DNA from: a virus
Lineage: Duplodnaviria; Heunggongvirae; Uroviricota; Caudoviricetes
Virus record (IMG/VR): IMGVR_UViG_2700989509_000007
Length of the DNA stretch: 15,711 nucleotides
Strand: one strand, 5' to 3'
In this document: in pieces, positions 9,001-12,000 of the stretch
Layout of the letters: the number at the start of each line of letters is the position of its first letter
How positions within the stretch are numbered: position 1 is the stretch's first letter
Program-made: the position numbers

Positions 9001-12000
9001 AAGTTCAATATCCTGCTGGCAACTGGCGCAAGCTCTGCATCCACGAACAGCCAGGCGTCGCCGCTCATCTATCGGATCGCCACACTCGCAACAATGAGTA
9101 GCAGATGGGGCATTACAATCGGATTTGTATTTTTGCAGGGAGAAATTGCGCTGCAATTCTTCGATTTCAGCGGCGTTGTCGATGATATCTGCCATTTTCC
9201 TTTCCTTCAGGCATGAAAAAAGGAGCCGAAGCTCCTTTGGTTTTATAATTCGAATTGCCTTGCCCGCAGGCTTTTCAGCATTGGCATGGCCCGCTGGATA
9301 ACGGAACTTGACATGTCGAGACGTGTTACCTCCCTCAGTAGCGCGTCTCTGTTTTTCGTCACCGCATAGAAGGTTTCAAACGCAATGTCATACAGTTTAC
9401 TCGCGTATGATGAGTTAAGTCCCTTCAATATCGGGTACAGACGTTTGCAGATGTCCTGCGCATTCTCCATCTGTACCTGCATATAGCAAAGGAGGATGAT
9501 TTCTTCGTCTGTGAATTGCTGCGCTGGTTGCATGCTGCGAAGTTTTTTCTCGCACTCGATGAAGTATCGGCGTATCTGACGGCCTTTTTCGTTACGTTCA
9601 ACCATCGCCAGTTCTTTGGCTGTGTCGAGAGTGAGATGGTAGTCTTTTGCAGGACGACCTCTGCCTATTTTTTCCCGAACTTGGGAAATAATCATAAAGT
9701 CTTGATTTTCAACGAAACCATATTCAGCAATTCGTTCGACAATCCACGAAGCAAATCGCTTACCCACATCGAGGAAAGTGTGTAAATCACGGGCATTAAC
9801 GAGAAGAGTGGTTTCGTTGGATATAGTGCCGTTGAATACGGGGATGAGTTGACTGGTCATGATGACCTCCTTGTAAGTTTAGTTAGCTCAACCAGTTAGT
9901 AGCTGGTTGGTCGGGTGTCAACTGAGCCTTACAAGAAGCTCTGGGCATATTCCCCTTACGGGTATTGTATTACGCCTCTCCACCCGACCTTTGTACGGAT
10001 GTGACTATGCCGCATTACGGGCATAAAAAAGCCGCAAAGCTATCGGGTGCGGATGACCGCTTGTAAGTTCAGTGCGGTCAGTATGCGATAGCTCTGGCGG
10101 ATTTGTCAAACTATGAGAATATTGATGAACGAGTGACGGTATATACCCCACCCAGACAATTAACGTAAATTCACATCGTAAACTTGCGTTAATTGTCTGA
10201 AATATCAAGTTAAATCCCCTTAAATCTTTGGGGCACTATTGGGGCAAAATGTGGTTGTTTGGGGCATATTTGGGGCAAAAAAGAACGTATAAAGAACGGT
10301 GTAAAATCGATTTCTTCATGGTTAAAATGAGGTCTAACATATTGAAAAGTATATGCTCTTGGACGATCTTCGGTAATTCTGTGTTTTTAATGCTTCATGG
10401 AATGGACATGGTAGTAGGTTGCTCATGAATGCACTCCCTTGCGAAGTTGGTCTGCACAATGCAGCAGGGTGTCCGTCGCATATTTAAGCCTCACTAGCTC
10501 ACCATCATCCATTCCCGCGAGATTCGCGTGTTTAACGAACGCCGAGCAAAGGTCATTAAACGCCTGCGCCCGTACTTCAGCCAGAAAAGCATCGGTGGCT
10601 GGCGTTTCCCGTGAACGGTAAGACCAAACAATGTCGTCTGTTTCACTGGGTTCTTCATGAGAGCAATTTGGGCAGACAGCAGTACAACCAGCATGATCTT
10701 CTATGAGCATCTTCAGCCACGAGTTCTCCTCCGCCAGCGCTGAAAACTTCTCGTGTGCCAACTTAACAGCCGAATCAGCCTGCTTAATTGACTCAATCGC
10801 TTTCTGCTGGTCTTCGGACAGAGCCGAAATCTTGGCCTCCGCTTCAGCAAATTTACGCACAAGATATTCAGCATTTGTTTCGTTAACCTTTAAATCACAT
10901 GGGATGCATTTACCTTTCAGAAATCCATCCATCTCAATTAGTGTCATTTGTTTCATTTCTTCCCACTCCGCCACATCGCATTCAGATATTTGTTATCATT
11001 AACAGAGCAGAAACTCTTTCGCTTAAGCAATTCCTCTCTCGATGGCATTGGCTTTACGCGTTGGCGAATAATCATTTCTGCCGGAAGAATGCCGGGATTG
11101 TATGCAAGTCCTCTCATGGTAAATTCCTCAGTTATTACTGATAGCGCCATAGCGTGAGCGGTAATTACGCAGGCGCGGGTCGATATATTCAGGGAAGTGG
11201 GTATATGTGGATTTGCGGAATGGTCGGATTGATGTTTCGTTTATTCGGTCTTTTTCCTGTTTTTCTGCGAGTTGTATATCGCGTCGGTACTTCCGTTCTT
11301 CTTTTGTTTCTGGTGGCAGAGCAAGAAACGCGTCGAGATTATTCTTGATATTTTCCAGCACCTCCGATATGGAATTGCCGGAACAGCGGCGCGGGTCGTC
11401 CGCACCATATAGAGGCGCTGGCATGGTTTTCTCCTGATTAAATTGCGTGAATAGCGTGACGAGGGAAGGGGAGAGTTACTGGTGCAAAGGGTATATCGTC
11501 GTAAAAATCCATCGGAGGTTCGTTGTGTTGTGCAGGTGATGATTGCTGCTGTGGCTTCTGTGATTGCCTGCTGGCTGCTTGTTGTTTGCTGTCGCCAATT
11601 CCGCCAAGCATTTGCATCACGCCATTAATTCCGACATGAACCTCGGTTGTGTAACGGTCTTGCCCTGACTGGTCTTTCCACTTTCTGGTTCTCAGCATTC
11701 CCTCGAAATAAATCTGATCACCTTTTTTCACATACTGCCCCACAACCTCAGCCAGTTTCCCGGATACAGCAACACGATGCCATTCAGTCAATTCCTTTTG
11801 CTCGCCAGTATTTTTATCTCGCCATTGTTCTGACGTGGCTATTGTCAGGTTAGCGAACGCTGTACCTGATGGTGAGTATCGAACTTCCGGGTCTTGTCCT
11901 ACCCGACCAAGGATAATCACCTTATTTACGCCTCTGCTTGCCATTTATGCCGCCTGTTTTAGTTCGTTAACTCTGATGTTCATTACCTGAACGCATTTAG

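Follow-up and report, generated by a model that had tools for sequence, protein, structure and literature searches.

Antirepressors can trigger prophage induction, and induction of Shiga-toxin (Stx) phages leads to toxin release. We analyzed a stretch of 15,711 nucleotides (nt) from a virus of the class Caudoviricetes (IMG/VR record IMGVR_UViG_2700989509_000007; this whole stretch is hereafter called the window), whose minus strand carries an antirepressor gene, ant (9243-9860), preceded by a structured small RNA (sRNA) of the Rfam family sRNA-Xcc1 (9989-9909) and by a leader that repeats part of the ant Shine-Dalgarno (SD) region. A self-contained RNA immunity cassette that silences ant is the best explanation of this arrangement, with a probability that we estimate at roughly 0.8. 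The module would be an RNA immunity switch of the type of P1 c4, P4 CI and N15 that uses another RNA scaffold, and Stx phages commonly carry it. In phage phi24B, ant is reported to be only weakly expressed in lysogens and to promote efficient induction, the mechanism of its silencing not being given; the present analysis offers a concrete mechanism for such silencing and names the exact bases.

Switches of this kind have been known since 1990. In phages P1 and P7 the c4 RNA is released from a longer transcript through an RNase P cut at the 5' end of the closing stem; its b' segment occludes a ribosome binding site (RBS), specificity comes from its a' segment, and heteroimmunity arises when a few bases of these determinants change (Citron & Schuster 1990 and Hartmann et al. 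1995, as summarised in PMC5320573 and PMC5499578). The window resembles the P1/P7 immI region (c4-icd-ant1/2) in having a structured RNA that would be co-transcribed with its target, a'/b' segments facing a2/b2 at the RBS, an upstream a1/b1 copy and an antirepressor with the same N-terminal domain (AntA/AntB), and heteroimmunity by a few base changes matches the three Stx-phage classes described below. It differs in the length of the closing stem (9 base pairs (bp) vs. 17), in a larger hairpin 1 with a conserved internal loop, in the location of a' in the 3' junction and in its target, which is the SD of ant itself, without an icd-like open reading frame (ORF) or translational coupling. In N15, immA produces the CA RNA that controls icd-antA-antB (Ravin et al. 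1999), and immunity of P4 is due to the CI RNA with seqA/seqC (Forti et al. 1995); in both, the RNA causes premature termination. Their order of promoter, leader with a target copy and Rho-independent terminator, processed RNA and controlled genes is that of the window, whose predicted leader switch would work in the same way, but both use a C4 RNA and an isrK-family leader, whereas the leader in the window has another fold and a CCCG-NN-AG terminator loop.

Two further prophage systems control an antirepressor through RNA. Gifsy-1 encodes the leader RNA IsrK, a terminator, the processed RNA STnc1160 and anrP (Hershko-Shalev et al. 2016, PMC4825925); its read-through mRNA is translationally silent and gives rise to a stable processed RNA, the leader RNA pairs with the downstream RNA, and IsrK is an activator in trans that works via the upstream orf45 by translational coupling (PMC4825925). 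As in isrK-orf45/STnc1160-anrP, the antirepressor gene of a lambdoid prophage lies in the window behind a short leader RNA ending at its own terminator, although an orf45-type ORF is not conserved in the module and the RNA families differ. In the immI region of P22, where sar, Arc and Mnt control ant, sar is a cis-antisense RNA from the opposite strand; antisense RNA at the ant RBS controls antirepressor translation in this P22-like or lambdoid setting too, whereas the candidate regulator in the window is encoded upstream on the same strand and is structured. No arc or mnt genes were found in the flanks of ant.

The sRNA-Xcc1 family has been in Rfam since about 2012. In Xanthomonas campestris, sRNA-Xcc1 resides in integron cassettes (Jiang et al. 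2010, Chen et al. 2011); it is a discrete RNA, about 88 nt long and ending in a U-run terminator of its own, and has been described as a trans-acting sRNA linked to virulence, without a known mechanism. It belongs to the same Rfam family as the RNA in the window and likewise lies directly upstream of, and in the same orientation as, a potentially toxic gene (symE); the window copy differs in lacking the U-run, in being placed inside a leader-sRNA-ant transcript and in having an identifiable target. The family has also been noted upstream of an ORF6N gene in APSE phages. Within an incomplete coverage of the literature (the sRNA-Xcc1 papers, a 2025 review of phage sRNAs and reviews of sRNAs in enterohaemorrhagic Escherichia coli), we found no description of a link between this RNA and ant; the transcript may have been detected earlier, for instance among the uncharacterised Hfq-bound Stx-phage sRNAs EcOnc20/31/36/43/50 and sRNA110. 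What appears to be new is that sRNA-Xcc1 members, with a leader of their own kind, may repress the gene next to them in the manner of c4, and that ant of Stx phages may be under such RNA control in at least three specificity classes.

A structured RNA of the sRNA-Xcc1 family upstream of ant

A search of the window against Rfam returned sRNA-Xcc1 (RF02221) as the sole non-tRNA match, on the minus strand at 9989-9901 (71.0 bits vs. a gathering threshold of 53, E = 1.7e-11, model positions 1-87 of 87). The cmscan match contains an RNA of 81 nt (9989-9909) which, folded alone, adopts the family consensus structure as its minimum-free-energy (MFE) structure (-34.1 kcal/mol, z = -4.18). This structure is composed of a 9-bp closing stem (9989-9981/9917-9909; GGUCGGGUG/CACCCGACC), a hairpin 1 (9977-9943) with the conserved core AUACAAUACCC-GUAA-GGGGAA and a GNRA tip, and a hairpin 2 (9941-9924; GAGCUU-CUUGUA-AGGCUC), from which the single-stranded junction AGUUGA leads into the 3' arm of the closing stem. 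The family core AUACAA-N-ACCC-GNAA-GGGGAA is present at 9970-9950. The U-run that directly follows the closing stem in the type member was not found in the window, where AACCAGCUACUAACUGGUU stands in its place; most phage-borne family members are likewise without it, and the comparative loci L048, L056 and L106 have one.

The comparative set was obtained by scanning a viral contig collection for the hairpin-1 core, which gave at least 120 loci, with 113 distinct RNA sequences among the matches listed. All counts out of 77 given below refer to the distinct loci parsed among these listed matches, namely those with a unique hairpin 2 and junction. When 20 comparative loci were re-scored with Rfam, 17 passed the sRNA-Xcc1 threshold (53-77.5 bits; 69.1 for phage 933W). 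Every one of the 34 distinct 7-bp versions of the closing stem in the parsed loci is paired, as are all 49 distinct versions of the hairpin-2 stem; the hairpin-2 loop is hypervariable, with 68 distinct sequences in the 77 loci. The parse was anchored on structure and replaced an alignment of 61 family RNAs with MAFFT and RNAalifold; in that alignment the closing stems were out of register, so that nothing but the tip of hairpin 1 and hairpin 2 was recovered. Loci L065 and L071 each hold two sRNA-Xcc1 cores, 380-530 nt apart and with differing hairpin-2 loops, which look like tandem cassettes of different specificity.

Rfam places sRNA-Xcc1 outside the C4 clan. The models C4 (RF01695, clan CL00128), isrK (RF01394) and c4-a1b1 (RF03163) gave no match in 9800-10450 at E ≤ 10 with permissive filters, and the RNA in the window was therefore not filed under C4. 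As positive controls, C4 scored 78.8 bits in N15 and 74.9 bits in P4 and isrK scored 62 and 61 bits, respectively; in both genomes the isrK-family leader and its terminator are directly followed by the C4-family RNA, and neither genome is matched by the sRNA-Xcc1 model. C4 and Xcc1 RNAs nevertheless share their topology, namely a closing stem, a GNRA-capped hairpin 1, a hairpin 2 with a variable loop, a junction, the returning strand of the closing stem and an ACC tail. The isrK and c4-a1b1 models match, in addition to N15 and P4, two loci (L037, 2422-3753; L064, 2349-3141) in which an isrK-plus-C4 module and an Xcc1-type module stand in tandem on one strand, each before an ORF6N antirepressor gene, the two paralogues having near-identical N-termini. 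Complements of the loop (UCGGUGAU) and junction (AGUUCCAA) of the C4 copy are again found just before the SD. As far as sequence arrangement can tell, these tandems show the C4 and Xcc1 RNAs to be functionally interchangeable. In L037 the first C4 RNA is directly followed by the promoter of the Xcc1 cassette, as if the cassette had been inserted between C4 and its target.

Co-variation of loop, leader and Shine-Dalgarno sequences

A preliminary description of this locus, made from the sequence alone, had pointed to an inverted repeat of 8 nt in the transcript, CTTGTAAG (9935-9928) and CTTACAAG (9877-9870), and to TTGACA (9921-9916) and the palindrome CAACCAG-N7-CTGGTTG (9909-9889), all of which we find on the minus strand at these coordinates. 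The second arm of the repeat ends inside the SD AAGGAGG (9872-9866), 5 nt before the ATG at 9860, and the proposal that the repeat occludes the SD is strongly supported both by comparative covariation and by a cis fold that pairs the two arms. Counting both orientations, the window holds exactly three copies of the 8-mer, compared with an expectation of 0.40 (a count of three is reached in 1 of 200 shuffles), with all copies inside the module and within 208 nt (9870-9877, 9928-9935 and 10060-10067), the third having been missed before. Each copy belongs to one of three segments. The antisense determinant b' (9938-9928; CUUCUUGUAAG) is formed by the hairpin-2 loop and flanking stem bases; b2 (9877-9867; CUUACAAGGAG) overlaps the SD within the ant translation-initiation region (TIR, 9885-9858, with AUG at 9860-9858); and b1 (CUUACAAG, 10067-10060) lies in the leader. 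A second set of segments accompanies them: a' (9923-9918), the junction AGUUGA that holds the TTGA of TTGACA, a2 (UAACU, 9885-9881) in the TIR and a1 (ACUGA, 10073-10069) in the leader. Pairing is co-linear, b' 9938-9928 with b2 9877-9867 and a' 9923-9918 with a2 9885-9881, and a1 and b1 (10073-10060) together form a target mimic complementary to a' and b'. No further target of the hairpin-2 loop was found in the window besides b1 and b2.

The same relationships hold across the family. A complement of the loop of at least 7 nt occurs 25-50 nt past the RNA in 55 of the 77 loci (permuted loops: mean 2.5, maximum 8, in 200 permutations) and 60-125 nt before it in 60 (mean 3.2, maximum 9, in as many permutations); at a threshold of 6 nt, the downstream complement is present in 67 loci. 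It abuts or overlaps an SD (GGAG/GAGG) with a start codon in 58/77. Complements of the junction of at least 5 nt precede b2 in 57/62 loci (median gap 7 nt) and b1 in 61/67 (median gap 5 nt). Cognate duplexes have a mean energy of -18.1 kcal/mol, compared with -12.1 kcal/mol for non-cognate ones (p = 1e-22), and b' of the window reaches -24.0 kcal/mol with its own TIR vs. -7 to -17 kcal/mol with non-cognate TIRs of its subfamily. In the MFE fold of 10075-9850 the hairpin-2 region pairs with the SD region in cis. Since descent without selection would erode co-inherited matches, the many different perfect matches require compensatory change; this comparison of sequences shows pairing between the hairpin-2 loop and the ant SD to be under selection. 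The heptamer GUCAACU in ant codons 3-5 (9847-9853), a complement of AGUUGAC (junction plus first stem base), was considered as a target and dropped; it stands in the wrong order for co-linear pairing, occurs only in loci sharing the Ant N-terminus and is probably incidental.

Among Stx phages the three sites fall into distinct sets of loop/b1/b2. Class I, to which the window, Shigella phage 75/02 Stx and O157:H7 str. 611 belong, has CUUGUAAG / CUUACAAG / CUUACAAG; class II, comprising 933W and Stx1a phages, has CUUAUUUG / CAAAUAAG / CAAAUAAG; and class III, the P27-like phages (phi345), has CUUUGAAG / CUUCAAAG / CUUCAAAG. Class III also carries a matched insertion of 1 nt, the junction changing from UCAGU to UCUAGU and a1 from ACUGA to ACUAGA. 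Likewise, b1 changes along with the loop in 933W, L003, L037, L015 and phi345. Because the loop, the leader site and the SD site change together between phages, the loop would be what sets immunity specificity. The loop of hairpin 2 in the N15 CA RNA (L125, 28301-28388), UUUCUUCUUGUA, shares UUCUUGUA with that of the window and could form 9 bp with the ant TIR of the window (UACAAGGAG, 9867-9875), which could mean either that unrelated phages cross-talk or that their loops have converged on complementarity to the SD.

Genes following the RNA are predominantly of the antirepressor type. The 51 distinct downstream proteins include 35 with Pfam matches to antirepressor-type N-terminal domains of six types, namely KilA-N (9), Bro-N (8), Rha (7), ORF6N (5), P22_AR_N (3) and AntA (3), the rest being small proteins without a Pfam match. 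In the window, the description of the gene at 9243-9860 as antirepressor-like is borne out by the domains of its 205-residue product, an N-terminal AntA (E = 8.7e-28) and P22_AR_C (E = 9.7e-9), and its RefSeq relatives are annotated as antA/AntB antirepressor.

Leader, proposed circuit and alternatives

A promoter scan of 9100-10500 reported a single site, the predicted sigma-70 promoter P_ant on the minus strand (10109-10080), with -35 TTGACA at 10109-10104, a spacer of 18 nt, -10 CATACT at 10085-10080 and a predicted start at about 10073. Both hexamers are kept in 933W, L003 and L065, and also in L037 despite a different spacer; no plus-strand promoter was found in the region by the scan. 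The prophages 933W and O157 str. 611 have the module at their very end, where upstream phage transcription would be of no use and a promoter of its own is needed. A start near 10073 would place a1 and b1 at the 5' end of the transcript. Upstream of the -35 hexamer, at a distance of 45-90 nt, lies an imperfect inverted repeat of 22 nt (CAGACAATTAACG...CGTTAATTGTCTG, 10153-10199) with few changes in 933W; lacking a U-run, it is not a terminator, and it may be a protein-binding site involved in promoter control or in att-arm architecture.

The leader contains an intrinsic terminator (10052-10025), in which CCGCA (10052-10048) and UGCGG (10036-10032) enclose 11 nt and are followed by C and U6 (10030-10025), with the loop ACCCGAUAG. 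Of the 77 loci, 62 have a terminator between b1 and the sRNA, compared with 19 of 385 shuffles (5%); its stems co-vary, its loop motif CCCG-NN-AG is conserved family-wide, and b1 is always followed by CGG. The octamer CACCCGAU (10047-10040) was considered as a mimic of the 3' arm of the closing stem co-varying with the 5' arm, but this idea was rejected because the family data identify it as the terminator-loop motif, which does not track the closing stem. The terminator loop also resembles the hairpin-1 tip of the sRNA (ACCCG-N-AAGG), which may point to a tertiary contact or to a partner common to both. Within 10060-10025 an antiterminator-like pairing of GCGG (10060-10057) with CCGC (10052-10049) around UCAU excludes the terminator and is preferred in the free window leader (-6.6 vs. 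-5.3 kcal/mol). Blocking a1/b1 in silico, as pairing with the sRNA would, flips the MFE structure of the window leader to the terminator. Over the family, the computed probability of the terminator rises from 0.34 to 0.80 upon such blocking (38 of 56 loci up, none down), and natural a1/b1-plus-CGG heads suppress the terminator more than shuffled ones do (0.34 vs. 0.61, Wilcoxon p = 5e-7). A further hairpin (UAUGCC-N8-GGCAUA, 10025-10006), conserved in the subfamily alignment, is predicted between terminator and sRNA.

On the 3' side of the sRNA, the tail AACCA opens a predicted hairpin (9908-9890; AACCAG / CUACUAA / CUGGUU) that would stack directly on the closing stem. Hairpins are enriched at this position family-wide (mean stem 5.96 bp vs. 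3.65 bp in shuffles), with unrelated sequences filling the place, and in the window's subfamily the arms vary compensatorily (ACCAG/CTGGT, GCCAG/CTGGC, ACCAT/ATGGT, TCCGG/CCGGA, GCCAC/GTGGC) around a conserved CTACTAA. The sRNA combines several traits compatible with RNase P, namely a G at the predicted +1, the 9-bp acceptor-like stem and an NCC(A) tail; CC stands at offset 0-1 after the parsed closing stem in 65 of the 77 loci. A small hairpin (GGUCA-UCA-UGACC, 9867-9855) is predicted to bury the ant AUG. Hairpins of at least 5 bp at this place occur in 39% of 61 distinct family TIRs compared with 9% of shuffles, with compensatory variants (GGCCAU/AUGGCC, GACCAU/AUGGUC, GGUCGU/AUGACU), and the element looks like a second, intrinsic brake on translation. 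We found no conserved small coupled ORF (icd- or orf45-like) upstream of ant: the 21-codon frame at 9948-9883 is shifted in 933W relative to the window, and an ATG is missing at this place from most members of the family.

From these elements we propose the following circuit. P_ant would transcribe leader, sRNA, hairpin and ant in this order. The b' segment would pair with the 11 nt of b2 over the SD, and a' with a2 a few bases upstream, blocking ribosome binding first in cis in the read-through transcript and later in trans once the sRNA has been excised. That this antisense pairing limits translation is probable given the covariation, the position of b2 and the analogy with c4. Excision would probably be by RNase P at G9989, since the tRNA-like closing stem and (A)ACCA tail recall P1 c4 and P4 CI, and we consider the chances of excision with action in trans to be about even. 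Pairing of the sRNA with a1/b1 would free the leader terminator and stop transcription before sRNA and ant, a feedback like that of P4 and N15; this step, suggested by the in silico switch calculations, is put forward tentatively, at somewhat under even odds. Comparably tentative is a role of the short terminated leader as a decoy titrating the sRNA, after the Gifsy-1 precedent of IsrK.

Several observations weigh against this circuit or parts of it. Having no U-run, the RNA in the window must be processed to act in trans, yet the post-sRNA hairpin, once formed, is predicted to sequester the CCA and could hinder RNase P, and the AACCA tail of the window is displaced by one base relative to the NCCA of its relatives. 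With a leader starting 35 nt upstream of b1, the computed switch showed no consistent effect, so that the attenuation model holds only for a start near a1; in the window these 35 bases bring in a further hairpin, GACCGC/GCGGUC, which favours the terminator. Only the window's subfamily has the GCGG/CCGC antiterminator. Three of the 20 re-scored loci (L019, L028 and VHML) fall below the Rfam threshold. As the window gives no match to the C4, isrK or c4-a1b1 model, likeness to the characterised systems is one of layout rather than demonstrated homology, and since the leader RNA of Gifsy-1 nets activation, the overall sign of the circuit depends on RNA ratios.

Some of these points would suit a purely cis-acting brake in the 5' untranslated region, in which the RNA is never excised and its loop folds onto the SD until released, for example by ribosomes or RNA polymerase of the early-left operon. 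The pairing of hairpin-2 and SD regions in the MFE fold, the lack of a terminator after the sRNA and the hiding of the CCA tail agree with it; it would, however, leave unexplained the conserved a1/b1 copy with its own terminator, the tRNA-like closing stem with its NCC tail and the stand-alone family members that have a terminator of their own and are detected as discrete RNAs, and the layout matches systems with demonstrated trans action. We regard it as unlikely.

Less likely still is a private sigma-70 promoter with TTGACA at 9921-9916 as its -35, repressed by a protein bound to the palindrome (9909-9889) at the -10 position, as the preliminary description had suggested alongside RBS occlusion. 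The hexamer and the palindrome are both perfect, and the subfamily of the window conserves TTGA(C/T)A, but a single TTGACA and a palindrome of two 7-nt arms around 7 nt carry no weight by themselves because each is expected several times in 15.7 kb (an estimate from base counts). That description had itself noted the absence of a convincing -10, and indeed the candidates at 16-18 bp (TAACTG, CTAACT and AACTGG) were not reported by the scan, which placed no promoter at this hexamer. TTGACA is fully explained by the Rfam-scored RNA, in which the a' junction runs into the first bases of the 3' arm of the closing stem (CACCCGACC), and other subfamilies carry TTCGAACC or TTTGAGCC in its place. The compensatory arms and conserved centre of the palindrome are the reverse of what an operator for a dimeric repressor would present, and unrelated hairpins occupy the same spot. 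Of the combined control once envisaged, occlusion of the RBS thus holds and operator repression does not; the anatomy predicts transcription from upstream and no start near 9890, the outcome that the preliminary description had named as contradicting its proposal. Equally improbable is that the RNA serves mainly as a trans regulator of host genes, its complementarity to the neighbouring gene being incidental: the Xanthomonas papers predict many host targets and call sRNA-Xcc1 trans-acting, and additional host targets remain conceivable, but the hypervariable loop tracks the adjacent SD and leader in 55-60 of 77 loci vs. about 3 for permuted loops, and no other loop-matching site exists in the window.

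Should the RNA cassette reading be correct, it would assign a function to sRNA-Xcc1 and suggest its membership with the C4 clan; the co-varying loop classes would tell which prophages do not respond to one another's RNA immunity. The wider view that sRNA-Xcc1 is a second, widely mobile and programmable c4-type scaffold, carried in a portable cassette whose hairpin-2 loop defines the heteroimmunity class, is a reasonable possibility to which we give slightly less than an even chance. On this view, the cassette of leader mimic with terminator, RNA and SD target would gate antirepressors of six or more unrelated domain types, as well as certain small proteins or toxins. At least three classes would exist among Stx phages (window with 75/02 Stx; 933W with Stx1a phages; P27-like), and the RNA of a resident prophage would decide whether an incoming or co-resident Stx phage makes Ant, and hence cross-induction.

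Prophage context and distribution

The window covers an early-left prophage arm of P22-like or lambdoid type, with the minus-strand gene order N, gp17-like, erf, ssb, abc2, an ORF, the module, ant, traR/dksA-like, DUF4752 and ead/Ea22. Downstream of ant, a palindromic GC-rich hairpin with T-runs on both strands (9219-9238) is probably the terminator that closes the cassette; the scan reported it on the plus strand, and on the minus strand its stem is followed by TTTTTTCA. Phages 933W, VT2-Sakai and many other Stx phages carry the module with ant, traR and ead at 86-100% identity. The module was found in 592 of 5,426 complete E. coli genomes and in more than 100 sequenced phages, 933W and VT2-Sakai among them; the RefSeq annotation contains no RNA at its site.

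Upstream of the module, at 10227-10280, two units of 23 nt hold four TTGGGGCA repeats. Their homologue in 933W is flanked by the attR core and the promoter of ant, and they are therefore probably arm-type sites of an integrase; as they are internal to the prophage in the window, they suggest an attP relic carried along with the ant cassette. Elsewhere in the window, a tRNA-Arg(CCT) gene (4301-4375, minus strand) sits between two divergent tyrosine-integrase genes (2973-4175, minus strand; 4496-5740, plus strand), which suggests two integrative elements on one tRNA site. Just upstream of the gene for the N-like antiterminator (14188-14607) there is an ORF for an IS66-family transposase (DDE_Tnp_IS66, 14873-15697), which may interrupt the immunity/PL region of the prophage.

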